From: a virus
Lineage: Duplodnaviria > Heunggongvirae > Uroviricota > Caudoviricetes
Reading direction: 5' to 3' (one strand)
DNA length: 64,000 nucleotides
IMG/VR virus record: IMGVR_UViG_3300010282_000006
Span: 10,315-74,314 of that record
Part shown: one piece after another, positions 20,903-44,150 of the stretch
Numbering within the stretch: position 1 is the stretch's first letter
Layout of the letters: the number at the start of each line of letters is the position of its first letter
Program-made: the position numbers and the translations under genes
Notes under the pieces: generated by a model
Databases searched by the model: none
What the model was told of the DNA's origin: nothing
What the model saw: only the letters and a program-made list of their open reading frames with translations

Positions 20903-21847
20903 TTAATGCGCGTTCCGGTCGCAGTTGTTCATCACCATGATGCGCTCCCAAGTCTGCTCGCCAAGCAAGCCCTTAAACTTTGCCTCTGTCTTCGGCGGAT
21001 GATTGGATTTTTTCACCACGAACGGAGCCATGTGCCAGCGAATCAGCAGCGCGACTCCAGTCGCCTCATCATCGCTCAGGTCGCCGGTGTAGCGAAAGCT
21101 CTCGTAAGCGCCGACACGCTCATGGTTGTAGTAGTGAGCCGTTTTGCACGGATTTCCTTTGGAATCAACAAACGACTTGGTGCGCTCCTTGCCAAAGTCG
21201 TGCAGCAGCATGGCGCGGAGAAGAACGTCGTCCGTATTGGGATAGTGCTCACGCATATAGCTCCAAGCCGCCATACAGTGCTGCCCGATGGTCAGCGTGT
21301 GGTGCGGATTGTCATGCGCAATCTGAGAGAGAAACCGCAGCTTGTCGTCGATACAGCCGGAAACAAACGTCGGCGCGTTACAGACCTCAATCTTATCCCA
21401 GCCCTCCGCGTACATCGGCACGTCAAACTTGCGGTACATCTGCGAGATTACATCATTCGGAACAACACGATTGCGATTCTCGTTATATCGCAGACACGCT
21501 TCAATCGGCGTCGCCATGAATACGCAAACCGTTCGCAAATCGGGGATGTGCAGTCCGCGCAGACTGTGGAGAAACGCGCGGCGGTGCTTATAGTGGATGT
21601 TGGTCGCGTCGTAAACAACGCTGTTGCCGCCGCGCAGATCATCAAAAATGCGCTGATGCAATGTCTTGAAGACAAGATCCTGCTGCGTCTGATCGTTCGC
21701 ATCACCCAAAAGCTCAGCACGAATTGCGTCGCTGGAGTGGACGACGACCTTTTCGGCAAACGGAAGCGCCTTAGATAGCTCCTTTGCCTTTGTGGTCTTG
21801 CCGCTGCCGGGAAGACCAACCATCATATAGAAGATTTGCGCCATCAC
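20903..21847 (-). CDS. P-loop polynucleotide kinase fused to HD-domain phosphohydrolase
   Basis: 314 aa; Walker A GLPGSGKTT at N-terminus; HD motif LLHDFGK in C-terminal half. Confidence 0.65.
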   Translation of the reverse strand: MMAQIFYMMVGLPGSGKTTKAKELSKALPFAEKVVVHSSDAIRAELLGDANDQTQQDLVFKTLHQRIFDDLRGGNSVVYDATNIHYKHRRAFLHSLRGLHIPDLRTVCVFMATPIEACLRYNENRNRVVPNDVISQMYRKFDVPMYAEGWDKIEVCNAPTFVSGCIDDKLRFLSQIAHDNPHHTLTIGQHCMAAWSYMREHYPNTDDVLLRAMLLHDFGKERTKSFVDSKGNPCKTAHYYNHERVGAYESFRYTGDLSDDEATGVALLIRWHMAPFVVKKSNHPPKTEAKFKGLLGEQTWERIMVMNNCDRNAH

Positions 21848-25701: not shown

Positions 25702-26856
25702 TCAAGACATTTTTGAAAGTCTTTGTGAGATTTCCGCAATCTTATATGCTGCGTCGACCACATCCGTTCCATCGTTGGTCTCGCCAAAAGATATACGGAC
25801 TGTGCAGGCAGCTTCTTCATCCGGCATACCAATCGCACGCAACACATGGGAGACGCCATTGCCGGATGAACAGGCCGCGCCTGCGGAGATGCAGACGCCA
25901 TCCATATCGAGCGCCATCAAAAGCGCCTCGCTGTGGACGCCGAAGATCGTCAGACTGACGATGTTGTCAATGTGCGGCGCGTTGTCGCAGTTGACACGAA
26001 ACCGACCAGCGCCGAGCTTATGCGCAAGACTGCTCAGAAATACATTACGAAGCGCCATGTATTGTGTCATACGATCAATCAGACTTTTCGTGATGATTTC
26101 CGCCGCTTTTCCAAGCCCTACAATACCGGGTACATTCTGTGTCCCGCCGCGTAATCCACGCTCCTGACCGCCTCCGAAAATCAGAGGTTTCTTGTGTATT
26201 TTACTGCTGATATAGAGGAATCCAGTGCCTTGCGGCGCACCGAACTTGTGACCGGACGCGGACAGCATATCAATGTGACACTTTTTGACGTCAATCGGCG
26301 TATGGCCAACTGCGGCTACCGCGTCCGTGTGGAGCGGAATGTCATACTTTTTGCAAACAGTTCCGATTTCCTCCATCGGATTGATTGATCCAAGCTCGTT
26401 GTTCGCCCACATGATAGATACCGCACCGATCCGATCCTTTATGCTTGCCGAATTGTTGCGAATCTCAAAATCGAGCCACTTCGGATCGACACGGCAATCA
26501 TTGCCGACGTCCAGAGCGATAGAAGGGACGCCGAGCGCTCCACGGTCATAATGCGCCAGAGGTTCGGATACGGAGTGATGCTCCGCCTTTGTGGTGATGA
26601 TCGTTCCACGGTCGATGCAACGAAGCCAAGCGTTGTTGGACTCCGTGCCGCCGGACGTGAAATAGATTTCCGATGCGTCCGCGTTTATCATGGCGGCGAC
26701 CTGCTCTCTCGCTCGTTCGATTGCCTGATGCGCCGCAACGCCCTGTGCGTGCAGGCTGGACGGATTGCCGACGCTGCCGTCGCCAAACCACGGAAGCATG
26801 GCCTCCAGAACTTCGGGACTCACCGGCGTGGTTGCCGCGTGGTCAAGATAAATCAT
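25702..26856 (-). CDS. cysteine desulfurase (NifS/IscS family); start trimmed to MIYLDHAATTP
   Basis: PLP-dependent class V aminotransferase signature (SGHKF, active-site Cys in SAGAACSSG loop). Confidence 0.85.
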   Translation of the reverse strand: MIYLDHAATTPVSPEVLEAMLPWFGDGSVGNPSSLHAQGVAAHQAIERAREQVAAMINADASEIYFTSGGTESNNAWLRCIDRGTIITTKAEHHSVSEPLAHYDRGALGVPSIALDVGNDCRVDPKWLDFEIRNNSASIKDRIGAVSIMWANNELGSINPMEEIGTVCKKYDIPLHTDAVAAVGHTPIDVKKCHIDMLSASGHKFGAPQGTGFLYISSKIHKKPLIFGGGQERGLRGGTQNVPGIVGLGKAAEIITKSLIDRMTQYMALRNVFLSSLAHKLGAGRFRVNCDNAPHIDNIVSLTIFGVHSEALLMALDMDGVCISAGAACSSGNGVSHVLRAIGMPDEEAACTVRISFGETNDGTDVVDAAYKIAEISQRLSKMS

Positions 26857-28444
26857 GATTTTCCTCCCTGCAAAACATCTCTTTGTTGCACATCTCTCTA
26901 CTCCAGCAGAAAGCATACTCCGGCAAAACGCGCCGCTTCTCCTGCGGAATACGGCGATCCTCCTCCAGATACCGCAAATACGACGCTTTGATGCTGTCTT
27001 CGTTCTCCGTGACCACGGAAGCGAGGCTTTCCACCTCTGCCCGGTCATACCATCGGACGTTCCACAGCGAGAGAATCAGCAATCGCTCATCTACAACGCT
27101 CAACGGCAGGCGTCTCGAAGCGCGCAGCTCCTTTGAGACAAGAAGAGCCAAATCCATGCCGCAAAGCGGCACCTTGACGCCGAAAAGGTTGGCGGAAAAA
27201 CGCTTGACTACCTTGTGTGCGTGAGACTCAAGATACAGGCAGCGGCATTTCTGCTTGTTCCGAAAGCCCTCCCAAAAAACAGCGGATACAACGGCTTGAA
27301 TATGCTTTTTCACGAGAAAAGAACAGACACCATCGTAATAGAAAAGCGTACTGTACGGAAAATCCCGCAGAGCGCGGGAAAGACAGGCTGAAATATATCC
27401 GCCGTTCCAAAATCCGAATGGAGGGAGCTGCAAATAATCGCGCAATTCGTTTATTTCGCAGTATCCGCAAGCCTGAATCCGGGATTTTATGAAATTTCGG
27501 ATGTCGCGTATGACCGAGGCGTGGTCGTCCAGCGAAAAACCAAGCCTCTTATCACAGCTTCCATTCATCCCATAGTCGACGCCTGCCTTGATGCCAGCAA
27601 TCGAGACGGACGCGAACGGATTGAGCGAAAGCGCCTCCACTCCGCGCGGATAAACCGATAAAACGAGGTCGTCCAACGTCGCAGGCTCTTTTTGTCTTAC
27701 GGCATCGCGCATTTTTACAATGCGCTTGTGAACTGCCACATTCGACATGGTGCCGATCCTCGCGGCGATCTCACGTTCCGTCGCTCCGCGTTCCGCCAGA
27801 TCTGCGATTCTTCGGTCTGTTTGATCCGCCGCGCCGGAGGTCAGCTTCCGCCTGTCCGGGTCTGGTTCTCCACGCAGATAGAGCGTAGACGGTTCATGCC
27901 CCGAACGGTAGCAGGTAAAATGACTGAACCACTCATTTTCCGCCTGACGCTTCATTTCCTCATAGGCGTGCAGCAGTTCTATATGCTCGCGATCCAGTTT
28001 TACGAACGATTCCAATTCTTCCGGGAAGCACTTGTATTGCTCGGCGTTGTTCTCAGCCGCGCGGAACCACGCATCGCTTGGCTTGTTTCCCTCCGTATCC
28101 CACAAGCCGGCGCTTTTTAGCTGGGTGCGCATCGCATCGAAACGCTCGTACAGATCCATTGCGGCATCGGGAAAGTCAGACGTCAGGACGCATAGGCGGT
28201 CGCTGCATCCGGTTTCCGCAAACAGGCTTTCTATCTTGCTGCGCTTCGGCTGACCGACGATATAAACCAGGCAAATTCTGTCTGGATAGTCGAAATGCGC
28301 CGCGTAGCGAACCATCTTTGCGATATTCCTTGCGTATCCGTGGAATGTCAGGAATCGGCGCAACTGCTGCCGTGAATATTCAATTTTTGGAAAACCGTCG
28401 AGTACAAATGTTTCCTTGTACTCGACGGCTCTTTCCTTCTTCAT
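26843..28444 (-). CDS. large protein with sigma-70 region-4-like HTH (TEREIAARIGTMSNVAVHKRIVKMR); start trimmed to RBS-preceded ATG
   Basis: 534 aa; HTH segment shared with gene 55700..56503. Confidence 0.45.
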   Translation of the reverse strand: MKKERAVEYKETFVLDGFPKIEYSRQQLRRFLTFHGYARNIAKMVRYAAHFDYPDRICLVYIVGQPKRSKIESLFAETGCSDRLCVLTSDFPDAAMDLYERFDAMRTQLKSAGLWDTEGNKPSDAWFRAAENNAEQYKCFPEELESFVKLDREHIELLHAYEEMKRQAENEWFSHFTCYRSGHEPSTLYLRGEPDPDRRKLTSGAADQTDRRIADLAERGATEREIAARIGTMSNVAVHKRIVKMRDAVRQKEPATLDDLVLSVYPRGVEALSLNPFASVSIAGIKAGVDYGMNGSCDKRLGFSLDDHASVIRDIRNFIKSRIQACGYCEINELRDYLQLPPFGFWNGGYISACLSRALRDFPYSTLFYYDGVCSFLVKKHIQAVVSAVFWEGFRNKQKCRCLYLESHAHKVVKRFSANLFGVKVPLCGMDLALLVSKELRASRRLPLSVVDERLLILSLWNVRWYDRAEVESLASVVTENEDSIKASYLRYLEEDRRIPQEKRRVLPEYAFCWSREMCNKEMFCREENHDLS

Positions 28445-28510
28445 TTCTGCCACTCCTTTTGATCGAATCAGCGGTTCCATAAAATCAAACAAAAGTTGTT
28501 GCAAATCTCG

Positions 28511-28625
28511 TTGCGGGAAGCGGGACTTGAACCCGCAGCTTGCGAAGACTGTTCGCCGCCCGACCGTCGAGCTGTTCCCGCGTGCCGCCGCGTAAGCGGC
28601 GGTTGCCGTCTTTCCGGCTGCCAGA
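28511..28625 (-). tRNA. tRNA-like sequence with canonical T-arm and acceptor stem but a non-canonical (5-nt) anticodon loop; possible pseudo-tRNA
   Basis: GCGGGTTCAAGTCCCGC T-arm and GCGGGAA/TTCCCGC acceptor pairing; anticodon arm does not fold canonically. Confidence 0.3.
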
Positions 28626-28660
28626 AAAAAGGAGAAACGTTTGCCGCCCACCACAACGGC

Positions 28661-28750
28661 TGGCGGAAGGGGAGGGGATCGAACCCTCGCGCCGCTTTCG
28701 CGGCCTAGCGGTTTAGCAAACCGCCCTCTTCACCGCTTGAGTACCCTTCC
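28661..28750 (-). tRNA. tRNA-Ser (anticodon GCU) with long variable arm and encoded CCA
   Basis: hand-folded cloverleaf: acceptor GGAAGGG/CCCTTCC, anticodon loop TTGCTAA, T-arm GAGGGTTCGATCCCCTC. Confidence 0.65.
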
Positions 28751-28994
28751 ATGTCGGAGCATCCGCGAAGTGGACGCTCCGGAAAAGAAACCTGTTAAAA
28801 ACACTCGAATATTATATGAAAGAATCGCCATTCAGGGCTGATCTCGTGCTCTCATATCTTCCTCCGATCGTATGCGGTTCGCCGGAGTCCGGCGTTCCGC
28901 CGCAGGTGTAGCCGGTGAAATCATTTGTGTATCACAGCAGGATCTTCTTCATGGGAATCATCTCCTTTTGCCTTTGCGTCCATCATACGGACAC

Positions 28995-30161
28995 TTAGGG
29001 AAACAAGTTATCTACAAACCGATCCATGTCGGTCGTCAGCTTGTAACAGTTGCCATGAGAGGCATGGTTTTTCCAAGAGTTGTATTTTTCGTCAAATTTT
29101 TCGCGCGTCATTTTGCCGGACAGCACCAGCTTCGCGTCCTTTCGTAGTCTCTTTTTGATCTGGCGCTTGTTGTCGCCGGTCAACCTCCGAATGACCTTGC
29201 CGTCCTCGGTAAGATAGCTGTGGAACCCAAGAAAACGGACGCCCTTTCGCATTGGCACGATCTCCGTCTTGCTGTTGAGCGTCAGACGAAGCTCTGATAA
29301 ATACGCTTCGATCTTCTTCTTGCAATCCTTCAAATAATTCTTATCGTCGGAGAGCAAATAGAAGTCGTCCGCATATCGGCCGTACCACACACAGCCAAGG
29401 TCTTCCGTAACGTAGTGATCGAGGCCGTCAAGAAACATCAGCGCAAATACCTGACTGCACTGATTGCCAAGCGGCAACCCGAGACCATCCGTGCTGTCTA
29501 TCAGAAGATTGCAAATCCATCGAATACCATCGTCGTCGAAGTAGCGGCGAACGCAGGCTTTCATCAGGTCGTGGTCGATGCTGTAAAAGAACTTGGTAAT
29601 GTCGCATTTGAGAATGTATCCGCCGCTTCCGTGCTTCGCGTAGAAATCCAGCAGGTTTTCCGAAAGTCGATCCAGCCCGAACAAGGTTCCCTTGCCTGCC
29701 TGACCGGCGTAGTTGTCGAGAACGAAACAGCTTTGCAGCCTCGGCAGCAACACGCAGTCGCACAGGCAATGCTGGAGAACCTTATCGCGGAACGTACCTG
29801 ACTTGACGATCCTTCTTTTCGGCTCGGAAACAACAAACGCGGTGTACGCTCCGACGCGGTATGTTCGCTCCTCCAACTGGCGCTTCATCACGACCAGATT
29901 TTCAAGAGCCAACACGCTGAACCGCTGTGCGCTGCGCTTCTTTCCCTTGCCTTTGCGAGCGACCTGATAGGAACTAAACAGATTTTCAAAGCTGGTCAGC
30001 TTCTCAAAGTCGCTCACGGCTTTTGTATTTGTCCCGCCGACGGCGAGAGAGGTTGTGTACTCTTTTGATAGTATGGCGCACTCCTTGTAGCTGTCTAAGC
30101 AGCTTATAGACCTCGCAAATCCACCAGAACGGGCGAACGTCGTTGCTGTAGTCGCAGTCAT
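28995..30161 (-). CDS. diversity-generating retroelement reverse transcriptase
   Basis: 388 aa; RT motifs incl. YADDF and the DGR-diagnostic LGNQCSQ (in place of QGxxxSP); ATG lies inside the template repeat. Confidence 0.85.
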   Translation of the reverse strand: MTATTATTFARSGGFARSISCLDSYKECAILSKEYTTSLAVGGTNTKAVSDFEKLTSFENLFSSYQVARKGKGKKRSAQRFSVLALENLVVMKRQLEERTYRVGAYTAFVVSEPKRRIVKSGTFRDKVLQHCLCDCVLLPRLQSCFVLDNYAGQAGKGTLFGLDRLSENLLDFYAKHGSGGYILKCDITKFFYSIDHDLMKACVRRYFDDDGIRWICNLLIDSTDGLGLPLGNQCSQVFALMFLDGLDHYVTEDLGCVWYGRYADDFYLLSDDKNYLKDCKKKIEAYLSELRLTLNSKTEIVPMRKGVRFLGFHSYLTEDGKVIRRLTGDNKRQIKKRLRKDAKLVLSGKMTREKFDEKYNSWKNHASHGNCYKLTTDMDRFVDNLFP

Positions 30162-30207
30162 TCCAGTTCAGAATGCCATTGGAGTTGACGTAGCAGACGT
30201 TGCGAGC
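30128..30207 (-). repeat. DGR template repeat (TR), ~80 nt
   Basis: near-identical to two variable regions; differences are confined almost entirely to TR adenines (coding strand). Confidence 0.8.
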
Positions 30208-30238
30208 ATCAGCACACAGCCTGAAGGTCGTCGTCAAG

Positions 30239-30607
30239 TCAGGTCTTCCGCCAAGCGAGTGTCATATATTTGACATCGTGGGCTAAGGCAGACCACGATT
30301 CGCCTGTTGCGGCGCTGATCAGATGAGCGTGGAGGCTGTATTTCACAAGACTTAGGAATTTATTGCAGTTCGTAACCGCGCTTGTCTGGAAATCAAAGCG
30401 TTTTTGCCGCTGTGAGGATGAATCTGTCCGAAAGGAATTGGCATCCATCACATTGCTGTGGATGTTCAGCGCGTATGTTTGAAGCTGGTCGGCCAGCCGA
30501 CGGAACTTTACCGGATAATGCTGTCGGCTGGTCGTCAGATCAAACACGCTGAAAAGAAGCTCCTCTGCTTTGTCTCCTATGTCAAACTTAACCTCTTCGC
30601 TCATCAC
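30239..30607 (-). CDS. avd: Avd-like accessory variability determinant
   Basis: 122 aa basic helical protein between target gene and TR/RT, the canonical position. Confidence 0.6.
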   Translation of the reverse strand: MMSEEVKFDIGDKAEELLFSVFDLTTSRQHYPVKFRRLADQLQTYALNIHSNVMDANSFRTDSSSQRQKRFDFQTSAVTNCNKFLSLVKYSLHAHLISAATGESWSALAHDVKYMTLAWRKT

Positions 30608-30613
30608 AAGACA

Positions 30614-31225
30614 TCAAGATACGAAGATGGAAGAATCCAAGATACAAAACGGGCGAACGTGGCGGCTGCAGTCGCAGCCATTCCAGAACAGAATGCCATA
30701 GGAGCTGACGAAGCAGACGAGGCGAGTGTAGCTGGTACTCTCGTCGAATGTTACGCGCGTGGCAGTCCACCACGGTGAACCCATCTTGGGAAGATACTCG
30801 CGATAGCGGCGGTAGAGATCGGTCGTGAGCAAGGAAATATTGTCACGGACGCTGAACGACTTACCCGTACCGTCGTCTGCGACGAGCTTGACGGTGTGCT
30901 CCACGATGTTGCTTGCGCCAACCGCCTTGGAAAGCTCCTTATAGAAGGTATCGTTGAGATAGCGGCGCACGTCGCTCTTTGCGTAGTCGCCGCCACCGCC
31001 GTATTCCATCGTCTTGACAGAATCCTTGGCGAGAACCGCCGTAGTGGTCGCGCTGTGCTCCAGAACGTAGAACTCGCGGCTGCCGATTTTCACAACGGAG
31101 CCCGCCTTGATCTCGCCGAGCGTGCGGCGAGGCTGCTCAGACAGGGTAACGATGATGTTACCGTTGCCCTGCTCCTTGACGTCGACCTTGACGTTGGGGC
31201 ATTCGTTTTTGATCTCGATCTGCAT
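30614..31225 (-). CDS. DGR target protein 1 with C-terminal variable region (CLec/DUF1566-like)
   Basis: 203 aa; C-terminal ...WWTATRVTFDESTSYTRLVCFVSSYGILFWNGCDCSRHVRPF encoded by VR1. Confidence 0.8.
   Translation of the reverse strand: MQIEIKNECPNVKVDVKEQGNGNIIVTLSEQPRRTLGEIKAGSVVKIGSREFYVLEHSATTTAVLAKDSVKTMEYGGGGDYAKSDVRRYLNDTFYKELSKAVGASNIVEHTVKLVADDGTGKSFSVRDNISLLTTDLYRRYREYLPKMGSPWWTATRVTFDESTSYTRLVCFVSSYGILFWNGCDCSRHVRPFCILDSSIFVS
30648..30726 (-). repeat. DGR variable region VR1
   Basis: 12 mismatches to TR over 79 nt, 11 at TR adenines, 1 G/C mismatch. Confidence 0.8.
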
Positions 31226-31572
31226 TATGCGTCCTCCTCATTCTTCGGCGATTCATCCGCGTCGTCCACGGACAAGAGCCTTGTGAAGTTCTGAATGATC
31301 GCGCTGTTGTGCGAGCGCGCCCGCGCCATCGTCTGCCGCGTCTTGGCAAGCTCGCTCGTGTAAGCGTCCAGCTCGTCCATTCCGTCGCTGATCTGCTGAT
31401 TGATGAGTTCGAGATTGCTGATCGTCTGCGTGACCAAAGAGACGGCGTTATCCGCCTCCTGTGTGAGACGCTGAATCTCCGCAGACTTTTCGCGCAGCAT
31501 GTCGCGTGCTGCGGGTGTGTTGCGCATGTTTCTCATATCGACCTCCTTACTCCATACCGCCGATGCTGACAA
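31225..31572 (-). CDS. hypothetical coiled-coil protein
   Basis: 115 aa. Confidence 0.4.
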   Translation of the reverse strand: MSASAVWSKEVDMRNMRNTPAARDMLREKSAEIQRLTQEADNAVSLVTQTISNLELINQQISDGMDELDAYTSELAKTRQTMARARSHNSAIIQNFTRLLSVDDADESPKNEEDA

Positions 31573-32446
31573 TGGCTCCGCTGCCGGAAACCGTGGGAAG
31601 TTCGCCGTTCCACTGCTCGTACTTGATCTTCTCGATCAGCTCAGGCGTAAGGGACGCCGCAATCTTGCGGTTGGCGTCAGCCTCCGCCTCAGCCGCAATA
31701 CGCATGACCTCAGCCTCCGCGTTTGCCTGAATGACGGCTGTTTCCGCTGTGACCTGCGCGACCGCCTTGTCCTTGTTTGCCTGAACCTTTGCGGTTTGCG
31801 CCTCAATGTTGGCCAGCTCAAGCTCCTGCTGGGCGTTGACCTTCTTTTGGATTGCCGCCGCAGTCTCAGGATCGACGTCAATATTTGTAAAATTCACGGT
31901 GTCGATCAGGATGCCGTACTGGTCAAATTTCTCGCGCAAATACTCGTCCAGATGCGCGTTGATGTCCGTGCGTTTGTCGCCAAAGATGTCGGTGACGGGA
32001 TAGAGCGCCGTGATTTCCTGCGTCCATGCGGAAACCTTGGGCTTGATAAACGTGTCCTTGATCGTCTCACCGTTTTTGCCCTTGAAGGTCACGAACGTAC
32101 CGGAGACACGCGACTCATCGAAGCGATAGGAAAATTCCAGCTCGACCGTGACGCTCTTTCCGTCTGACGTGGGACACTTGAAGCTCTCATCGTGCTTGGA
32201 GTCGCCCTTTTCGCCGGAGACAAGGTAGGATTGCTCCAAGCCGATCGAATAGGTTGTGACCTTCTTCGTGGGGCTGACCATGTGCCATCCCTGCGAAAGA
32301 ATCTCTCCATCAACGCCGCCGTTCATATTGTAAATGACGCCGACATAACCGGCGGGGATCTTCTTGACGCACATAAGCGTCAGGGTCAGCGCGAGGACGA
32401 GGCCGATGCCGAGGATAATGCCACCGATGTATCCGTTTTTCTTCAT
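31547..32446 (-). CDS. SPFH/Band-7 (stomatin/prohibitin-like) membrane protein
   Basis: 299 aa; N-terminal TM, SPFH-like core, Ala/Glu/Gln-rich coiled-coil tail. Confidence 0.65.
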   Translation of the reverse strand: MKKNGYIGGIILGIGLVLALTLTLMCVKKIPAGYVGVIYNMNGGVDGEILSQGWHMVSPTKKVTTYSIGLEQSYLVSGEKGDSKHDESFKCPTSDGKSVTVELEFSYRFDESRVSGTFVTFKGKNGETIKDTFIKPKVSAWTQEITALYPVTDIFGDKRTDINAHLDEYLREKFDQYGILIDTVNFTNIDVDPETAAAIQKKVNAQQELELANIEAQTAKVQANKDKAVAQVTAETAVIQANAEAEVMRIAAEAEADANRKIAASLTPELIEKIKYEQWNGELPTVSGSGAIVSIGGME

Positions 32447-32448
32447 GC

Positions 32449-32640
32449 TTACTTACTCTCCTTTTCTTCTTTGTTGTTGGTGTTTTCTGCTTCGGATGCG
32501 GGATTATCGTCTTCAGTCATGGCTTTTTTGGCGTCGCCATACAGCTTGTTCGCAAGCCTTCCGATCGGCTTGAAACAGAACGGCAGGAGAAACCAGAGAA
32601 GAACCACGCCGAGGATCAACAAAATGTAGAACACAGGCAT
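32449..32640 (-). CDS. small membrane protein (start trimmed)
   Basis: hydrophobic MPVFYILLILGVVLLWFLLPF. Confidence 0.35.
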   Translation of the reverse strand: MPVFYILLILGVVLLWFLLPFCFKPIGRLANKLYGDAKKAMTEDDNPASEAENTNNKEEKESK

Positions 32641-32653
32641 GAGATCGCCTCCG

Positions 32654-32917
32654 TTACGCCGGCGCAATCGCGGCTTCCACGTTTGCCTCATCCGCAGGCT
32701 GCGCGCCGGCGCTGCCTGCCTTGGGCGTCTGCTTTTTGACACCCCATTCGTTCCCGTTCGTCCAACGGAGCGTTCCGTCCTTGTAGCGGACGAAGTAGCG
32801 CAGGAAGGAATCGTTGGGATCGACCTTGCGGATCACACCGCGCACCTTGCGCTTGACATCGTAGACCACATCGCCGACCTTGTGAATGATGGGAGCGCCC
32901 TTCTTCTTGTGTTCCAT
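32654..32917 (-). CDS. hypothetical protein
   Basis: 87 aa, RBS-preceded, upstream motif 1. Confidence 0.45.
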   Translation of the reverse strand: MEHKKKGAPIIHKVGDVVYDVKRKVRGVIRKVDPNDSFLRYFVRYKDGTLRWTNGNEWGVKKQTPKAGSAGAQPADEANVEAAIAPA

Positions 32918-32990
32918 GTTTATGCCTCCTAAAATAAATTATTGTCGTGCTAATGAAATCTGAAAGGCTTTCGCCCTCAGATGCGCTGTT

Positions 32991-33929
32991 TTAGTAGAAC
33001 AGCTTCTTGTAATGCGCGTAATCGGACAGTGCGTTCCGATATGCCTGATCGTTTTCAAACGTCGTCTCAAAGACACGTTCCGCGAACGCTCTGTCATTGA
33101 GGTCGAACGTTCTGATCTCCACCTCCAACGCATGAGCTCGGTTAAAAATGCCGGACGTATGGATCACATTGTAGGTCAGAGAATAGCGCCCGTCCATGAT
33201 CGCGTTGAAGCGCTTGAGGAGCTGGTATAGCTGCTGTGTAGTGATGTGGCTGCTGCGTTCCGTACGGAAGAGATATTCCGACGCTTGGTATGTGTGGAAG
33301 ATCACACCACGCGCCTGCTGGTTGAATCCACGGGAATCCTTGTAGTCATTGAGCTGATCCGCAACAAACTGCGGCAGCTCCATGAACTTCCCACCGAGCA
33401 AAATCCCGTTTTCCAGCACGTCAGACTTTTTCAGCTCGCACATCTGCTCCATCGTCAGGCCAAACCATGCAAGATAGCAGGCGGACATGTGAGGGTCAAA
33501 CTTTCCGGTATTGTCACGCTCCGGATCTTTCGCCGTCTCCTCCACACAGAAGCGCAAATCGTTCAGATTGCGAAAGTAGGCGAGCTTTTTCCCGCCGCTT
33601 GTCGCATTGGAATCCACAGCGCTGAGATCTTCCAAATTGACAGACTTCAAAATCTGCATCTGATTCTCCGAAAAACGTCCGCTCTCTATCTGGTAGCTGA
33701 CATAGCGGCAAAGAGCCATTCGGTATTGCACAAAGCTGGTCTTGCGGCGTATGCCGATCGCATTGAACAGGGAGATGTAATCATCTCGCGTCATATCCGA
33801 ATCTAGCTTGCCGTTGTTCGCCTTATCCCATGCGCGGATCGCCTTTTCCTTCTGTAGGAAGACATTTATTATAGAATCCGAGCAGGATTTCAGCCCGCGT
33901 TTCTCGTCCGTAAAAAACGAATCGTTCAT
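32991..33929 (-). CDS. hypothetical protein (start trimmed to RBS-preceded MNDSFF)
   Basis: 312 aa; own sigma70 promoter upstream. Confidence 0.45.
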   Translation of the reverse strand: MNDSFFTDEKRGLKSCSDSIINVFLQKEKAIRAWDKANNGKLDSDMTRDDYISLFNAIGIRRKTSFVQYRMALCRYVSYQIESGRFSENQMQILKSVNLEDLSAVDSNATSGGKKLAYFRNLNDLRFCVEETAKDPERDNTGKFDPHMSACYLAWFGLTMEQMCELKKSDVLENGILLGGKFMELPQFVADQLNDYKDSRGFNQQARGVIFHTYQASEYLFRTERSSHITTQQLYQLLKRFNAIMDGRYSLTYNVIHTSGIFNRAHALEVEIRTFDLNDRAFAERVFETTFENDQAYRNALSDYAHYKKLFY

Positions 33930-33968
33930 GTCGCTCCCTCCAATCCGCTGTTCCGGTGGCGTATAGAC

Positions 33969-33997
33969 ATAGTAGCATGTTGGAGGTCGCTTGTCAA
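33969..33997 (-). promoter_or_regulatory. sigma70-type promoter (TTGACA-17-TACTAT) for gene 32991..33929
   Basis: hexamers read on minus strand. Confidence 0.5.
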
Positions 33998-34029
33998 TAG
34001 CAAAACATAAATTTATTGGAAATTCTGCA

Positions 34030-34500
34030 TTACCACCGATTGACAACGGACTTGAGTACCTCGCGGCGTTCCGAATCCATCTCGGCAATGTTCGCTCGCA
34101 GGCGGCGGGGCTGTTCCACGAAACGCCGCCAGCTTTCGTAGCACGCCTGCCTGTAGCCGTAATAGTAATCCGAGATCGCGCCGCGCGACTTGTTTGCGCC
34201 GTAAAAGTAGCGTTCCAACAGCGATTTGATTTCATCTGCCGTGGTGCTGAGCGTATGCCGCTCGTTCCGCCCGTCCGCGTAATCGCAGATCATCGCGGCG
34301 CTTGCCTCGCAGCCAAGCTCAACGTTTATGTAGAGCACGCAGCTCTTCGCATCGGCGAACCGTTCCGGCAGTTTACCCTTGTATGGGAAGAAAAGGAACT
34401 TGTCGCTCTCACTGGCGAGCTTGACCTTGGAAAGATCCAGCTCAAAATTTCCAAAATCCTCTACGGGATTCCCGACGAGAATCAAACAAACCGCCTCCAA
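34030..34500 (-). CDS. hypothetical protein (TTG start in ORF track; weak)
   Basis: 156 aa. Confidence 0.3.
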   Translation of the reverse strand: MEAVCLILVGNPVEDFGNFELDLSKVKLASESDKFLFFPYKGKLPERFADAKSCVLYINVELGCEASAAMICDYADGRNERHTLSTTADEIKSLLERYFYGANKSRGAISDYYYGYRQACYESWRRFVEQPRRLRANIAEMDSERREVLKSVVNRW

Positions 34501-34514
34501 CCTCTTATTGTATA

Positions 34515-34543
34515 TTGACAGGCACGATTACAAGTGGTATGAT
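34515..34543 (+). promoter_or_regulatory. sigma70-type promoter (TTGACA-17-TATGAT) for immR-like gene
   Basis: hexamers read on plus strand. Confidence 0.5.
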
Positions 34544-34651
34544 TAAAACAATCCACGAAGAAAATCGTTCCATCTGCGGCATACTATACCACGACCATAA
34601 TCGTTATGTCAATACCTTTTCACGAAAAAATTCGTGAGCTAGGAGATTTTT

Positions 34652-35050
34652 ATGGACTCCACAATTTATATCCGCACAAAAGAGCTGTGCGATGAACGCG
34701 GAATGTCGATCACCAGACTTGAGGGCGAGCTTGGACTTGGACAATATGCGATCGGTCGGCTCAAATCCTCATCCAATCCGACGGTCGAAACGGCCATGAA
34801 GATCGCCGGATACTTCGGCGTTTCCGTCGATTATCTGATCGGAGCCTCCGACATTCGCACCAAGGCAGACGATCTGGTGCATGACAACGACTTTGTATCG
34901 CTCCAGCGCGCACGCGAGAGGATGACGGATGTTGACCGAGACCGCATGATGGCGATGCTCCAAATTGCTTTTAACAAAGCGTTCGGAGATGAGACCGCCA
35001 GCGTTGAGCAGTATATCCTGAATGTCGAACGTGAGGAGAAGAAGGAGTGA
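34652..35050 (+). CDS. XRE-family HTH transcriptional regulator (ImmR-like)
   Basis: 132 aa; N-terminal HTH_XRE; paired with ImmA-like peptidase. Confidence 0.8.
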   Translation: MDSTIYIRTKELCDERGMSITRLEGELGLGQYAIGRLKSSSNPTVETAMKIAGYFGVSVDYLIGASDIRTKADDLVHDNDFVSLQRARERMTDVDRDRMMAMLQIAFNKAFGDETASVEQYILNVEREEKKE

Positions 35051-35051
35051 C

Positions 35052-35759
35052 ATGATCCGATACGGGAAAATCCACGATGAGGTGTTGAAGCTCTACTGCA
35101 ACATGAATCCGCTGGTGTTTCCGATCCAACCGGAGGAAGCTATGCGAGCCGTTCCAAATTGCAGGATGATGACATACCGCGAGTTTTCCGCACTCAACAA
35201 CTGTTCCGTAGAGGAGACGGTGCGGCTTTGCAGCAGCAAATCAGGCTGCACGCAATATGACGTGCTCCGCAATCGCCATCTTATCCTGTGGAACGACGAT
35301 CCATCCGATAATAATGTGCTTGGTCGCCAGAGGTGGACGAAGGCGCACGAGCTGGGGCATGTGGTTTTGCGGCATCTTCCGCAAACCGCGCGTTCCAGAA
35401 GCGAACCGTCAGGATTTTATGCCGAGCACTGCAAGGAATACGAGGACGAGGCGGATCTGTTCGCGTCGATCCTCCTTTGCCCGTGGCCTCTCTTTTTCCA
35501 ACTGCACATTCATTCCGCCGCCGACGTCGCCAATGTGTTTGGCCTTTCCACAGAGGCTTCCAATGTGCGCTGGGCGGATTATCTGCGGTGGAGAAGCTGC
35601 AAACGCAATGACAAAGAGCTGCGCTGGGCTGGATGGATGGAAGGACTGTATCAGCTTCGTAAAAAATCCGGTATGGTGGAGCACCCACCGTTCCGCTACG
35701 GAGGAAGAAGATACAGCGGCATCGACGTATGGCCGGAAAAGGCTTCAGGCGATCCCTAA
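35052..35759 (+). CDS. ImmA/IrrE-family zinc metallopeptidase (HEXXH)
   Basis: HELGHVVLRH motif; start ATG overlapping immR stop. Confidence 0.75.
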   Translation: MIRYGKIHDEVLKLYCNMNPLVFPIQPEEAMRAVPNCRMMTYREFSALNNCSVEETVRLCSSKSGCTQYDVLRNRHLILWNDDPSDNNVLGRQRWTKAHELGHVVLRHLPQTARSRSEPSGFYAEHCKEYEDEADLFASILLCPWPLFFQLHIHSAADVANVFGLSTEASNVRWADYLRWRSCKRNDKELRWAGWMEGLYQLRKKSGMVEHPPFRYGGRRYSGIDVWPEKASGDP

Positions 35760-35790
35760 CATGGGGTCGCCTGTTTTTTTTGCGCAGCCT
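35749..35790 (+). terminator. intrinsic terminator (hairpin GGCGATCCC...GGGGTCGCC followed by T8)
   Basis: read from sequence. Confidence 0.55.
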
Positions 35791-35813
35791 GTTTTTTTTG
35801 AGCGGTTCCAAAA

Positions 35814-36311
35814 TCAATTCCGGCATGGAAGAAGAATCGCTGTGAGCGGAGAATCCATGACGCCCGCCTTGGAGTAGACCATCAGTGACGCGACGCTCCC
35901 CACAAACGGCTTCGCGTAACCGAGATAGGCCGTGCAGCCCGTCCCGGCCGACTCCAAGGTCGTGATCAGACGGCGAACGTCGAAGACGCTGCTGATCGTC
36001 GTCCCGTCAAAGCGCTCTGCGGTGAGGGTGATCTTTCCCGGCGTCTTGCGCAGCACTTCCAGCGCCGGAAGATCCTCGACGAGGAAGAAGTCGCATCCCT
36101 CCGCCTCGCGCATCATCTCGTCATACTTGTCCTCGCGCGTTCCCGCCGGCAGTTCGTCCGGCGCTTCCTTGAGCATGACGAGGGTGTATCCGTCCGTCAC
36201 GGCGTAGCGGTCGCCGGAACGGTGGTAGCCGGTAATATGATGCGGATACCTGCGCCACTCTTCCGAGATGAGCCGCTTGAGTGCGGCGAGCTGTTTCTTT
36301 GTGAGCTTCAT
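35814..36311 (-). CDS. hypothetical protein (start trimmed to MKLTKKQ)
   Basis: 165 aa. Confidence 0.4.
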   Translation of the reverse strand: MKLTKKQLAALKRLISEEWRRYPHHITGYHRSGDRYAVTDGYTLVMLKEAPDELPAGTREDKYDEMMREAEGCDFFLVEDLPALEVLRKTPGKITLTAERFDGTTISSVFDVRRLITTLESAGTGCTAYLGYAKPFVGSVASLMVYSKAGVMDSPLTAILLPCRN

Positions 36312-36436
36312 TTTGCTCCTCCTTTGCAAATCATGCGTGCGGCGTATTCCGCAGCGGATTTTTCCTGCGCCTTTTCCACGCAGAGACGGATGATGAGATA
36401 GATAATGCCTGCCATAAACGACATGTTGACACCTCC

Positions 36437-36754
36437 TCAAACCATGTGCTCGGCCATGAAGTTCTCGAAGACGTCCGGCGTCCAGAGTCCGGAGCCGTCA
36501 TCCGCCGCGATGCCGGTTTGTTCCAGCTTCGTCACAAGACTGTCATAGGGGAGGGTATCGACCTCCAAGCCGAAGTGCAGGCACAGCGTCGTCCAGAGCG
36601 CTCGGAGCTGGCTCTGGAAGCCGCAGTCGTTCCAGTCGTCGCGGTGGTACTGGATAAAGATTTTGATGAACTCAAACTCCGCGTCCTGCTGAATCTCCTC
36701 CGCGCGGCGCTCCATCTCCTCGCGCAGCATTTCCTGATCCATGATCTGTTCCAT
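36437..36754 (-). CDS. hypothetical acidic protein
   Basis: 105 aa. Confidence 0.4.
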   Translation of the reverse strand: MEQIMDQEMLREEMERRAEEIQQDAEFEFIKIFIQYHRDDWNDCGFQSQLRALWTTLCLHFGLEVDTLPYDSLVTKLEQTGIAADDGSGLWTPDVFENFMAEHMV

Positions 36755-36773
36755 ATTCAGTCCTCCCGTTTTC

Positions 36774-37616
36774 TCAGTCGTTCCAGTTTTCGTGCTGCGT
36801 CAGGTACACGGCATAGTCGAACTCGGTCTTGCTGACCTTGTAGGACACGGAATCCTTCGCTATGCGATACTCCGTTCTGGGCTTGCTCTCCTTGACGTTC
36901 CAGCGGCTTCCGTACCACGACGTCACGCCCTCCTCCTTTTTCGGCGTCCAGCCGTCCTTGATAAGCGATTCCACAAACGCGCGCTTATTCTGCACGCCAT
37001 ATTCACTCGTGCGGATGAGCTTTTCCATCGCTGCGCGGAGCTTGCCGAAGCGCATGGGGGAGAAATCATCAGCAAATCCGTGGTACTTCGCGCGCTCCAG
37101 CCTGTCCTCCTCGGCCGCCTGACGCGCGCGCTCCGCCTCCTCCGCGCTGCGCTGCTCCTCGCGGACGCGCTGCTCCTCCTCCTTGCGGGCATACCACGCG
37201 GCGCGGTGCTGTGCGTAGACGTCGGCGCGTTCCGGATTCCACTGGCGCACGAACTCGATCCACGCATTGCCGATGAAGCGATTGCTTTCCATCGCCAGAT
37301 TCATCGCGGCGACGAACGCCTCCGGAGACTCGCCGCCAAAGTTCTTGACGCCCTCGGCGTAACGATCATCGGTCATATAGTCGCGGTAGATGCTGCGGTT
37401 CTCAACCTTCAAGCCGTCCGGCACGCCGTCAAAGAAGATGAACGTGTCAAATTGGCGCTCGCCGTACTGGTTGGTTCCATGATCGGCGGCGTAGACCGTT
37501 CCGACGACGGGGAAGACATCGTAGTAGTGGCGGACGACCTTGTTGCCGTCCGCTCCATATTCGAGCACGCGGCGCTTGCTCGTCGGCTGCGCGGACAGTT
37601 CCAGTAACGTTTTCAT
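36774..37616 (-). CDS. hypothetical protein
   Basis: 280 aa. Confidence 0.4.
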   Translation of the reverse strand: MKTLLELSAQPTSKRRVLEYGADGNKVVRHYYDVFPVVGTVYAADHGTNQYGERQFDTFIFFDGVPDGLKVENRSIYRDYMTDDRYAEGVKNFGGESPEAFVAAMNLAMESNRFIGNAWIEFVRQWNPERADVYAQHRAAWYARKEEEQRVREEQRSAEEAERARQAAEEDRLERAKYHGFADDFSPMRFGKLRAAMEKLIRTSEYGVQNKRAFVESLIKDGWTPKKEEGVTSWYGSRWNVKESKPRTEYRIAKDSVSYKVSKTEFDYAVYLTQHENWND

Positions 37617-37626
37617 ATACTCCTCC

Positions 37627-38004
37627 TTATTTGTTGTATGGGTAAGTCAACATCCACAGGTTTTTCACTTCGTCCAGCGTCAGGCGATAGTGCTCGCCCT
37701 GCGGGGCGCGGTCAGTCGTTCCGTCTGATTCGAGACTCAGCCACGCTTCAACGACATCGCCGTTCGCATCCTCGCGCTCGTGCAGCTTCATGCTGAGCAG
37801 AGACGGATGGACGCGGGACGGGTCTTGCGAGAGGTACGAAAAGATAATGCGGTACGCCTCGGCAAGATAGCGCTCATCCAATCCGACGCCGTAAAACAGT
37901 GCGTCCTCCATCTGTTGCAGCGTAAAGGCGTTCGGATGCTTCGCGCTCTCCATGTAGTGCTGAAACACCTTGCCGTTCAATCGCTGCTTTTCTGTTTCTG
38001 TCAT
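37627..38004 (-). CDS. hypothetical protein
   Basis: 125 aa. Confidence 0.4.
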   Translation of the reverse strand: MTETEKQRLNGKVFQHYMESAKHPNAFTLQQMEDALFYGVGLDERYLAEAYRIIFSYLSQDPSRVHPSLLSMKLHEREDANGDVVEAWLSLESDGTTDRAPQGEHYRLTLDEVKNLWMLTYPYNK

Positions 38005-38051
38005 GGCTTGTTCCTCCTTCCTCTTGTACCAGAGAAGAGATCCGTCGGGCG

Positions 38052-38429
38052 CTAACCGGCGGGTATGAATTTTTCCTCCACGCGGATCACGCCGGTCGGA
38101 TTGCGGTCGGTCAGACGTTGCTCAAAATAGCGCAGGCATTCGCTGAGAATGACGCCGCGCTGGAATGCGTTGAGGTCGTCCAAGTCGATTGCCTGAGCGG
38201 TTTCGTCCGTCAGATCGTAACGGTCTGCCACCGTGTCGTCCTCCGGCCTACCATAGACCGTATAAACGGCGCGGAAGCCCTGCGTTCCGCTGAACATGGC
38301 GGCGGCCTGCTCGTCCGAAAGTTTGTAAAGCCTTTGGAAATAGGCGTGGTCGTCAATGGTAAACTGAACTACTCTCACTCCACGCCCATCTCCTTCGCAA
38401 AATTGTCGATCTGTTCCGCCGTCAACCAC
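38052..38429 (-). CDS. hypothetical protein
   Basis: 125 aa. Confidence 0.4.
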   Translation of the reverse strand: MVDGGTDRQFCEGDGRGVRVVQFTIDDHAYFQRLYKLSDEQAAAMFSGTQGFRAVYTVYGRPEDDTVADRYDLTDETAQAIDLDDLNAFQRGVILSECLRYFEQRLTDRNPTGVIRVEEKFIPAG

Positions 38430-38950
38430 TCCGGCTTTTCCGGCAGAATCGCGTAGACCGCACGCATCAGCTCGATCTGCGTCTTTTCATCGTGCGTCCA
38501 GAGATGCTTCGTGTGCCGGCTGCGTCCGTCGTTGCCGAGGAAGTAGCTGCAATCAGAACGGAGACGGTCGAGAAACATGTAGTAGAAGCGCGAGCTGTAT
38601 GAGGTGATGTCGAAACGCCGCAGGACGGCCACCGCATCTTCGTACTCGCGCGCTCTGAGGTTCCGGCAAAGCTGCGCATCGCGCAAGCCTTCGCGCATCC
38701 ATTCCAGCCAGTCCGCCGCATCCACGGGCGGACGCAAATTGTAGGCGACGACACAGATCGCGCCGTAGGTCGCACCGATGTTGTTGACACCGTAGTCGCC
38801 GAAGTCCGGCAGCGCAGCGCCGCACTCGCGGGCAAATCGCTGGCAGCCCTCTTTTCCGCCGTAAAACATCCCATCCGTGCAGAGATGAGCGGCAGCGCGC
38901 GCTGTGGTGGACATCCAGTTATTGAATCTCTCGGAAATATTCTGTTCCAT
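38375..38950 (-). CDS. hypothetical protein (start trimmed)
   Basis: 191 aa. Confidence 0.4.
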   Translation of the reverse strand: MEQNISERFNNWMSTTARAAAHLCTDGMFYGGKEGCQRFARECGAALPDFGDYGVNNIGATYGAICVVAYNLRPPVDAADWLEWMREGLRDAQLCRNLRAREYEDAVAVLRRFDITSYSSRFYYMFLDRLRSDCSYFLGNDGRSRHTKHLWTHDEKTQIELMRAVYAILPEKPEWLTAEQIDNFAKEMGVE

Positions 38951-38954
38951 TTTT

Positions 38955-39245
38955 TTACTCCTTTCCCTCATAGCGGAACGCATACGGTGTGCCGACGCGG
39001 TACGGATAGAGACAAAACCAGTCGTCGCCGTCGATGTTCAAGGCGTGCTTGCTTCCGTCCTTCCGAATGACCACGCGCGGAGACTCGCGGAAGAGCTCGT
39101 CGAGCTGCGGCGCGTTGTACCGGCAGGCGTTTTCCAGCAGCGTGATGATGAACGACGCACTCGTCTCTTTCATTTTGACTTTTACGAAGCCTCCAAAAAT
39201 ACCGGGTTCGTCGCTTTCCCATTTGTAGATGCCGGTTTTTAGCAT
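38955..39245 (-). CDS. hypothetical protein (start trimmed)
   Basis: 96 aa. Confidence 0.4.
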   Translation of the reverse strand: MLKTGIYKWESDEPGIFGGFVKVKMKETSASFIITLLENACRYNAPQLDELFRESPRVVIRKDGSKHALNIDGDDWFCLYPYRVGTPYAFRYEGKE

Positions 39246-39329
39246 AATGTTTCCTCCTTCGATTTTGCGCTTCTTACGCCCATATAAGAGAAAAAGGAGC
39301 GCAAGTGCTAACCTGCGCTCCAAATTTTC

Positions 39330-41891: not shown

Positions 41892-41906
41892 ATTGCGCTC
41901 CTTTCG

Positions 41907-43898: not shown

Positions 43899-43901
43899 CG
43901 C

Positions 43902-44147: not shown

Positions 44148-44150
44148 TGT

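Follow-up and report, generated by a model that had tools for sequence, protein, structure and literature searches.

A complete diversity-generating retroelement with two lectin-fold targets and signs of recent activity in a large phage-like genome of Clostridia from the gut or rumen

In the diversity-generating retroelement (DGR) of Bordetella phage BPP-1, the elements are ordered mtd with its variable region (VR), avd, template repeat (TR) and brt, the differences between TR and VR are specific to adenines, and a C-type-lectin fold carries the VR at its C-terminus. Residues R74 and I181 of its reverse transcriptase (RT), bRT, promote adenine mutagenesis (PMC7826257). [quoted passage not shown] DUF6273 proteins of gut phages have already been published as DGR targets. 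The closest deposited relatives of the DGR reported here are of this kind and were found in nd12, nd4, Toutatis, Lelie and Brigit (PMC10743442; PMC11792537; bioRxiv 10.1101/2024.10.15.618418). In nd12, nd4 and the Faecalibacterium phages a pair of DUF6273 targets draws on a single TR, and the VR occupies the C-terminal end of the DUF6273 domain. The small single-domain targets of the 'tgt2' type fold like C-lectins, and their VR is a beta-hairpin (PMC10743442), and in Toutatisvirus a remote target is located 17.5 kb away (bioRxiv 10.1101/2024.10.15.618418).

The DNA analysed here, called the window, is a stretch of 64,000 nucleotides (positions 10,315 to 74,314 of the Caudoviricetes record IMGVR_UViG_3300010282_000006). 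An earlier note on its sequence had claimed a DGR cassette of target-VR1, avd, TR and RT at 28995-31225. The RT, the Avd protein, the fold of the target and the adenine-specific mismatches all agreed with that claim. The contents of the interval stood as proposed, but a second target with its own variable region (VR2, 41947-42025) lay outside it and had been missed. All features of the cassette are on the minus strand, where the earlier note had placed them, in the order target 1 with VR1, avd, TR and RT, which is the gene order of BPP-1. We regard the locus, with a probability of about 0.93, as a complete, recently active DGR in a large phage-like genome of Clostridia from the gut or rumen, rewriting two lectin-fold targets.

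The locus differs from BPP-1 in having a second target, 11.7 kb away, and in its host, Clostridia instead of a proteobacterium. RT identity to nd12 (a gut phage; Baykov et al. 2023, PMC10743442) was 48.7% and target identity 32%; for the Faecalibacterium phages Toutatis and Lelie the values were 38% and 29%. RT identity to this published group stays below 50%. The window shares with that group the small 'tgt2'-type targets; however, both of its targets are small, and the Ig-domain 'tentaclin' or Hoc-like target is absent. The genome also exceeds those of that group by far in size, with an IMG contig of 115 kb and close relatives of 100-164 kb, and it encodes DnaE, NrdD, thymidylate synthase and tRNAs of its own. 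A megablast search of 26000-45000 against deposited phages gave no match. Of 62 viral relatives scanned, nearly all had the layout target-avd-TR-RT with adenine-specific VRs. At an RT identity of at least 49%, the layout was common to 71 or more viral contigs and some 31 relatives in Clostridia-type genomes; a relative was also present in Ruminococcus sp. YE282.

The RT gene (28995-30017, minus strand) encodes 340 aa from GTG 30017 and contains EPKRRIV, YADD (29364-29375) and LGNQCSQ (29451-29471). The last two had been reported for this gene and were both present. DGR RTs were recognised by YxDD together with [I/L/V]GxxxSQ in place of the QGxxxSP of group II RTs, and LGNQCSQ corresponds to the [I/L]GxxxSQ motif. 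The gene had been given as 28995-30161, which is the mechanical open reading frame; its end was correct, but the start is probably GTG 30017, as placed from 17 close relatives, outside the TR. The best relative of the RT among solved structures was bRT of Bordetella phage (8ub7_A, E 6e-35), aligned over its full length. The equivalents of bRT R74, I181, G182, S186 and Q187 were kept, the positions aligned to R74 and I181 being R and L. The RT also matched phrog_1423 at 1e-107 and Pfam RVT_1.

The TR (30128-30206, minus strand) is a core of 79 nt, compared with 134 nt in BPP-1, with 19 adenines in 13 codons, and is non-coding in its own right. The length of 80 nt (30128-30207) suggested before was correct to within 1 nt, since TR and VR1 already mismatch at 30207. 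VR1 (30648-30726, minus strand) covers codons 167-193 of target 1, and VR2 (41947-42025, minus strand) is the variable region of target 2. The 3' ends of both are formed by the same GC-rich, IMH-like CGTTCGCCCGTT, located at 30648-30659 and 41947-41958, respectively. When TR and VR1 were compared in ungapped register at an offset of 520 nt, the 79-nt core contained 12 mismatches, 11 at TR adenines (A>T five times, A>G four times, A>C twice) and a sole non-adenine change, G>C (TR 30141, VR1 30661), reproducing the counts of the earlier note. In an 83-nt register that includes edge mismatches, 11 of 19 adenines were changed versus 3 of 64 non-adenines (Fisher p = 1.2e-6). Aligning these regions locally with gaps ran on into unrelated flanks and was dropped. 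TR and VR2 had 10 mismatches, every one at a TR adenine. The non-adenine positions were the same as in TR at 59 of 60 sites in VR1 and 60 of 60 in VR2; the two targets, only 37% identical, are homogenised to TR at these positions, save for one site of VR1. Substitution at TR adenines cannot produce a stop codon, and 1.9e11 peptides are possible per target. The reading-frame peptides quoted for TR (NVCYVNSNGILNWNDCDYSNDVRPF) and VR1 (LVCFVSSYGILFWNGCDCSRHVRPF) were obtained again.

Homology ended directly after CGTTCGCCCGTT, as had been observed before, with C as the next base in TR and T in both VRs. This GC-rich terminus is common to TR, VR1 and VR2, and past it no IMH/IMH* pair could be defined from the sequence. 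The GC-rich hairpin or cruciform that follows the VR in BPP-1 was not found in the window, the DNA after VR1 and VR2 folding no better than shuffles (z = -0.03 and +0.84). The same search downstream of TR gave no BPP-1-like hairpin beyond shuffles.

Target gene 1 (30614-31225, minus strand) encodes a single-domain DUF6273 protein of 203 aa with a C-type-lectin fold. Target gene 2 (41907-42539, minus strand) encodes 210 aa, lies on the strand of TR at a distance of 11.7 kb upstream and matched phrog_9958 at 6e-40. By blastp the second target was a remote paralogue of the first (37% identity, E 3e-36). A lectin-like fold of the target C-terminus was among the checks named beforehand; the fold was found, with the VR at the C-terminus of the scaffold as in BPP-1. 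The targets of the window are without the beta-prism and beta-sandwich of Mtd, and no signal peptide was evident by eye in target 1. Treponema denticola TvpA and other DGR variable proteins with a C-type-lectin fold had 8-12% sequence identity; TvpA, unlike the targets, is a cellular lipoprotein with an FGE-type elaboration and not a phage protein. The closest structural relative was not a phage tail protein but the IgA protease of Thomasclavelia ramosa (9qa6_A), whose N-terminal domain is annotated DUF6273 like the targets. In contrast to them, this protease is a secreted, cell-wall-anchored metallopeptidase, and its DUF6273 domain has no known DGR diversification.

The accessory protein expected beside TR and RT in a DGR, of Avd or HRDC type, is here encoded by avd (accessory variability determinant; 30239-30604, minus strand), with 121 aa most likely from ATG 30604. 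The mechanical open reading frame starts at GTG 30607, and gene callers on an identical assembly likewise gave 121 aa. A basic Avd-like protein of 122 aa had been proposed; its identity as Avd was borne out by the match to phrog_3206 ('Avd protein of DGR', 1e-12), while the length is most likely 121 aa and the pI of 8.8 makes it merely mildly basic. In a family of 20 members, Pfam PF22296 (bAvd) was matched by 10 and PF05635 (23S_rRNA_IVP) by 9; the copy in the window stayed below the Pfam threshold (E 0.094). Searching the PDB with the Avd sequence and with profiles turned up no meaningful match.

The spacer of the DGR RNA comprises the 110 nt between TR and the RT start (30018-30127, minus strand). 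It was analysed in an alignment of 15 relatives using RNAalifold and pair counts. Compensatory changes were present in 5 of 6 pairs of stem-loop 1 (~30082-30110, Avd-binding-like), stem-loop 2 (30031-30049) had two, and an A-rich tail was found at 30020-30031. The covariation score of the spacer RNA was reached by 0 of 500 shuffles. A 12-bp duplex encloses TR, its upstream arm at 30211-30222 pairing with its downstream arm at 30050-30061. Of its 12 columns, 11 were paired in all 17 relatives aligned, and more than one pair type occurred in 5 columns. This duplex resembles the 'cPRT stop' duplex of Bordetella phage DGR RNA (bioRxiv 10.1101/2023.10.23.563531). By their covarying sequences, the two stem-loops and the 12-bp duplex match the element types of DGR RNA described in that work (10.1101/2023.10.23.563531). 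The 3' end of TR (30122-30130) can pair, within the spacer RNA, with 30059-30070, the conserved AUCAAAAGAG. As this template:primer-like pairing was invariant among the relatives, covariation speaks neither for nor against it. The structure is apparent from covariation only; the single-sequence fold of the avd end, TR and spacer gave z = +0.58. A 14-nt perfect inverted repeat (30231-30244 and 29796-29809) was rejected as a 'stop duplex' because it occurs in only part of the close group, and the 12-bp duplex is the better-supported candidate. Separately, the region of the avd stop was complementary to RT codons ~69-74 over 14-18 bp in several close relatives, with one double compensatory change; this complementarity might couple folding of the DGR RNA to RT translation.

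Independent assemblies allowed the VRs to be compared within otherwise identical tracts of 20.6 kb, 14.4 kb and 5.2 kb. A contig of ERZ27241770 spans window positions 46281-20614 (~25.7 kb). It had 16 differences from the window, none of them outside VR1 and VR2; TR adenines accounted for 15, and TR itself was unchanged. The assemblies of SRR5190120 and SRR5190121 gave the same picture, with VR-confined differences and an identical TR. Against three other assemblies (up to 20.6 kb) VR1 differed at only three positions, 30678, 30664 and 30661, and the non-adenine G>C at 30661 was found in the window assembly alone. Against two other assemblies all differences fell in VR2 at TR-adenine positions, 13 of 13 in 14,375 nt and 11 of 11 in 5,231 nt. 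Protein clusters varied in the same way. In a 496-member 90% cluster of a related phage, the VR (residues ~169-189) differed in 15 of 15 sampled members, and outside it only scattered single substitutions occurred. VR heterogeneity at TR adenines, a check named beforehand for read pile-ups, was thus present between assemblies, which were used as a proxy. Since some 25.7 kb were free of differences except in VR1 and VR2, mostly at TR adenines, the consensus assemblies of different samples indicate a DGR recently active on both targets.

These data can be set against two readings in which the locus is not a working DGR. If the RT were that of a group II intron, a retron or a defence system (Drt/Abi), TR and VR would be an ordinary gene-fragment duplication. 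Some related phage records do label the RT 'retron-type', and NCBIfam gave weak matches to group II RT/maturase (TIGR04416, 87 bits), retron_St85_RT (55 bits) and Drt3a (55 bits), but the curated cut-offs of 300, 235 and 200 bits are far higher, and Drt2-5 were likewise far below theirs. The earlier note would have given up its DGR reading had the RT grouped phylogenetically with group II intron or retron RTs; judged by match strength, bRT was ahead of other solved relatives by 25 orders of magnitude, where group II intron RTs reached 1.6e-9 at best and retron-type RT chains 1.2e-8. Rfam models of group II intron RNA and retron RNA found nothing in 28400-31400 at E <= 1. With an Avd gene between target and TR and adenine-specific divergence in two independent repeat copies, such an origin of the RT is scarcely credible. 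A DGR that once carried out mutagenic homing and is now inactive, its VR differences being standing variation sorted by recombination or selection, has slightly more in its favour, as the comparison consists of consensus assemblies and VR1 varied at just three sites among four of them, one a non-adenine. Against this, RT, Avd, TR and spacer RNA were intact and identical across assemblies, including the catalytic YADD and the [I/L]GxxxSQ motif, and VR2 had changed at 11-13 of its 19 adenine positions without a single non-VR difference in ~25.7 kb. Change on this scale between identical flanks argues for a process directed at TR adenines and far faster than background mutation, and we consider a fossil element very improbable.

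A third reading accepts the DGR as real and concerns what it diversifies. The cassette and both targets were found among replication, nucleotide-metabolism and regulatory genes, and not tail genes; in BPP-1 the cassette adjoins the tail-fibre genes, and its early/replication position in the window also differs from nd12, nd4 and the Faecalibacterium phages. In a distant relative of ~56 kb the setting was similar, with tandem targets between SbcC-like/SSB and RecT genes. With such a neighbourhood, a virion receptor-binding role has no support from gene context. The targets could then be non-structural, diversified binders produced in infection or lysogeny, directed for instance at host defence or surface components, or set free at lysis. 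Their single domains of 203 and 210 aa, in which no virion-attachment domain was recognised, and the T. ramosa IgA protease as top structural relative point in this direction. However, the small DUF6273 DGR targets of gut phages have been read as Mtd-like receptor-binding proteins (PMC10743442; bioRxiv 10.1101/2024.10.15.618418), and where a gene lies says little in mosaic phage genomes. We consider non-virion binders unlikely. It is a little less likely still that the DGR lineage, found in early, replication or recombination surroundings both in the window (a 115-kb phage contig) and in one distant ~56-kb relative, diversifies small non-virion DUF6273 lectin-fold proteins that work within or outside the infected cell, for instance as adaptable binders of host defence or surface factors. 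The varied proteins are most likely ligand- or receptor-binding proteins of the phage; their binding partners, and a place on the virion, we infer above all. Genes for SPFH and coiled-coil proteins that lie upstream of target 1 were confined to the closest relatives and were not retained as a conserved part of the cassette. Scans for promoters and terminators did not rise above shuffles, and a tRNA-Thr(AGT) at 28512-28581 was an ARAGORN call only, to which Rfam gave no support.

From the observed anatomy, adenine-specific pattern, VR-confined change between samples, bRT affinity, lectin fold and conserved RNA helices, a scheme for the recently active DGR can be proposed. By analogy with BPP-1, a transcript over the avd end, TR and spacer would fold into a ribonucleoprotein with RT and Avd, and priming of cDNA synthesis would occur in cis, close to where TR ends on its 3' side. 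The RT would copy TR faithfully except opposite adenines. The adenine-mutagenised cDNA would then replace the homologous VR at the 3' end of either paralogous target gene, having two possible recipients, the adjacent VR1 and VR2 at 11.7 kb. Up to 13 codons would be rewritten in a surface beta-hairpin region of a small DUF6273 protein with a C-type-lectin fold. The priming site, the Avd-RNA contacts and the route of cDNA integration are presumed here from BPP-1.

The DGR of the window is a well-documented case of a known type, and no new mechanism emerges from it. It illustrates cleanly how one natural DGR serves both an adjacent target and a target 11.7 kb away. Covariation in its relatives gives independent support for the DGR RNA elements that were proposed as conserved from the cryo-EM structure of the Bordetella phage system. 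The published DUF6273-target DGRs of gut phages are extended by it to large (100-160 kb) phages of Clostridia.

The genes of the diversity-generating retroelement (DGR) lie on the minus strand in the order target 1 (30614-31225), avd (30239-30607), template repeat (TR, 30128-30206) and reverse transcriptase (RT). By ORF calling the RT frame ends at 28995, and its mechanical start, ATG 30161, falls inside the TR. A repeat finder returned a single direct repeat of 82 nt with a 520-nt offset. In an ungapped register, the 79-nt core of the TR differed at 12 positions from the variable region of target 1 (VR1, 30648-30726, minus strand). As the earlier note had claimed, 11 of these mismatches were at TR adenines (5 A>T, 4 A>G and 2 A>C) and the remaining one was a G>C difference (TR 30141, VR1 30661). 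The TR- and VR-encoded peptides that it quoted were reproduced, and homology stopped right after CGTTCGCCCGTT. In an 83-nt register including edge mismatches, 11 of the 19 adenines were changed versus 3 of the 64 other bases (Fisher p = 1.2e-6). The 19 TR adenines are spread over 13 codons, including six AAY; none of them can be substituted to give a stop codon, and the number of possible peptides per target is 1.9e11.

When the whole window was scanned with the TR as query, ignoring adenine positions, exactly three sites were found: the TR, VR1 and a third copy on the same strand (VR2, 41947-42025), located at the 3' end of target 2, an ORF of 210 aa (41907-42539, minus strand). No additional DUF6273 paralogues or TR copies were found within the window. 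VR2 has 10 mismatches to the TR, every one at an adenine. The two targets are paralogues with only 37% identity as proteins, yet the non-adenine positions were identical to the TR at 59 of 60 sites in VR1 and 60 of 60 in VR2, as predicted for repeated copying from one template.

The RT contains the YADD and LGNQCSQ motifs reported before and matched Pfam RVT_1 and phrog_1423 (1e-107). Its best solved relative was the Bordetella phage RT, bRT (8ub7_A), over a full-length alignment with an E value of 6e-35, compared with 1.6e-9 for the best group II RT and 1.2e-8 for the best retron-type RT chain. The NCBIfam group II, retron and Drt models all scored far under their cut-offs against this RT, and no group II or retron RNA was found with Rfam. 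Residues R74 and I181 of bRT, which promote adenine mutagenesis (PMC7826257), align with the R of EPKRRIV and the L of PLGNQCSQ, respectively. The gene had earlier been placed at 28995-30161, the mechanical ORF. The window's GTG 30017 aligned with an ATG in 14 of the 17 close relatives, nearly all 14 having upstream in-frame stops, and the bRT alignment likewise starts at this GTG. The RT therefore most likely occupies 28995-30017 (340 aa), with 30018-30127 as a non-coding spacer.

The small ORF, read before as Avd-like, encodes a protein of 121/122 aa that indeed matched phrog_3206 'Avd protein of DGR' (1e-12). Its orthologues matched Pfam bAvd in 10 of 20 cases and 23S_rRNA_IVP in 9 of 20; the window's own copy reached only E 0.094 in Pfam, and sequence searches of the PDB gave no match to it. 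Both targets matched Pfam DUF6273 and phrog_9958. A total of 409 homologues were found, nearly all of about 203 aa, and dozens of C-type lectins were among the structural relatives, in line with the fold proposed earlier. VR1 encodes residues 167-193, spanning the last beta-strands of the domain.

An alignment of the spacer from 15 relatives supported two hairpins on the minus strand. Stem-loop 1 (about 30082-30110) directly follows the TR, has compensatory changes in 5 of 6 inner pairs and carries UNCG tetraloops in several relatives. Stem-loop 2 (30031-30049) has two compensatory pairs and is followed by an A-rich tail. In the hairpin alignment 96.9% of cells were paired, compared with 40-60% when partners were slid, and none of 500 shuffles reached the observed covariation score. 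Just upstream of the TR, 30211-30222 forms a 12-bp duplex with 30050-30061 of the spacer (minus strand); 11 of its 12 columns are paired in all 17 relatives, and in five columns the pair type changes between relatives. The 3' end of the TR (30122-30130) is predicted to pair with AUCAAAAGAG (30059-30070), invariantly across relatives. The Bordetella phage DGR ribonucleoprotein has an Avd-binding stem-loop, a 'cPRT stop' duplex with a following stem-loop and adenosines, and a template:primer duplex (10.1101/2023.10.23.563531), and the same features were predicted in 207 other DGRs (bioRxiv 10.1101/2023.10.23.563531). The window elements correspond to these in kind and order, and by analogy may serve as Avd-binding stem-loop, 'cPRT stop' and template:primer duplex. 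No hairpin was found by folding the DNA downstream of VR1 or VR2.

Elsewhere in the cassette, the avd stop-codon region (30231-30244) shows 14-nt perfect complementarity on the minus strand to RT codons about 69-74, the fingertips motif (29796-29809). Similar pairings of 8-18 bp occur in the closely related loci L010, L068, L070, L073 and L075 and are missing in L002 and L005-L009. L070 carries one double compensatory change relative to the window (TT/AA to CG/CG). This could be a second long-range DGR RNA element or translational coupling.

Evidence of activity came from relatives' consensus assemblies, aligned as DNA against the window with differences tallied per span. The 90% clusters of the two targets had 5 and 4 members, and in members from the closest genomes differences were confined to the VR. 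One contig of ERZ27241770, a near-identical genome from another sample, covered window 41225-20614 (20,612 nt) with three differences, all in VR1 (30678, 30664 and 30661); contigs of SRR5190121 (11,334 nt) and SRR5190120 (2,094 nt) had the same three. Over window 46281-31907 (14,375 nt), the ERZ27241770 contig had 13 differences, and SRR5190120 contig sequence compared over 5,231 nt had 11, all in VR2. Variation of the type that the earlier note sought in reads was seen here between assemblies: differences fell only in VR1 and VR2, and all those in VR2 were at TR-adenine positions. The TR was unchanged in every assembly compared. Position 30661 is C in the window assembly only and G, as in the TR, in the three others; the G>C change may reflect an ordinary point mutation, a rare error of the RT at a non-adenine base or a polymorphism of the assembly.

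VR2 changed over its full length between assemblies; variation in VR1 was limited to the 3' third, and its eight 5' substitutions were common to all assemblies. In marker-transfer experiments with Bordetella phage BPP-1, transfer was reportedly partial and biased toward the end proximal to the IMH, the element at the VR 3' end. In a related phage, one 90% cluster of the orthologous target held 496 distinct sequences; all 15 sampled members differed in the VR, with just scattered single substitutions elsewhere. From these consensus assemblies we conclude recent activity of the DGR on both targets. The interpretation as a DGR was right and is reinforced by the second target, the natural activity evidence and the conserved RNA structure; we put the probability that the element is a functional DGR at about 0.93.

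The window looks like a piece of a large phage genome, with genes for NrdD, thymidylate synthase, a DnaE-type polymerase, primase/helicase, exonuclease, several methyltransferases, a NifS/DndA-like desulfurase, a PAPS-reductase-like protein, an HTH/ImmA pair, DUF932 and two or three tRNAs. The cassette is located in an early/replication region, and no tail genes were recognised near target 1 or target 2. Given this location, the targets may or may not be virion proteins at all, and confidence in a receptor-binding role on the virion is only moderate. Immediately upstream of target 1 are genes for a small coiled-coil protein (31225-31572) and an SPFH/Band-7 membrane protein (31547-32446), both on the minus strand and kept there solely in the nearest relatives (L067 and L070).

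The tRNAs, probably phage-encoded, are tRNA-Ser(GCT) (28661-28750, minus strand, 245 nt past the stop codon of the RT), tRNA-Gly(TCC) (63309-63385, plus strand, near the window end) and tRNA-Thr(AGT) (28512-28581, minus strand), called by ARAGORN only and without Rfam support. The cysteine desulfurase (25702-27048, under every NCBIfam cut-off), the PAPS-reductase-like protein (19508-20350) and a polynucleotide-kinase/KTI12-like ATPase (20903-21847) are encoded close together on the minus strand, which hints at a phage DNA or tRNA sulphur-modification module. The DnaE-type polymerase III alpha seems to be either truncated or split. An ORF of 826 aa (9252-11732, minus strand) matches its N-terminal and middle portions, and phage DNA-polymerase PHROGs are hit by another ORF of 307 aa lying downstream (7553-8476, minus strand). 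DNA methyltransferase-like genes number at least three, on the minus strand (340-1143, 16502-17203 and 39330-41306); one of them, lying between the two targets, encodes a 658-aa protein of the Dam/DUF4942 type. An HTH_3 (XRE) and Peptidase_M78 (ImmA/IrrE-like) pair (34652-35759, plus strand) is divergent from the DGR-side genes. Such pairs are typical regulatory switches of prophages or mobile elements, and this one suggests a temperate lifestyle.

Relatives of the RT were found on 71 IMG/VR contigs, the closest (65-82% identity) on contigs of 100-164 kb and a group at 50-57% identity on contigs of about 55 kb, and in 38 genome contigs, mostly from gut or rumen Clostridia. Nearly all relatives scanned had the target-avd-TR-RT layout with adenine-specific VRs. 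Most loci of the 55-kb group have two small DUF6273 targets in tandem immediately upstream of avd, whereas the window has one adjacent and one remote target. In L025, a locus of this group (tandem targets, 8212-9422), the cassette is flanked by SbcC-like/SSB genes and RecT. The closest deposited phages were nd12 (RT 48.7%, target 32% identity), nd4 and the Faecalibacterium phages Toutatis, Lelie and Brigit. In published work on these phages, each TR serves two DUF6273 targets, the VR sits at the C-terminal end of a C-lectin-like domain, and a target can be as remote as 17.5 kb (PMC10743442; PMC11792537; 10.1101/2024.10.15.618418). The window element differs from them in that both targets are small and single-domain, the carrier is a much larger phage genome and the cassette lies in the early/replication region. 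Since this type of DGR system, the DUF6273 target family with its VR placement and the use of two or remote targets have all been published, the window element adds to a known class.
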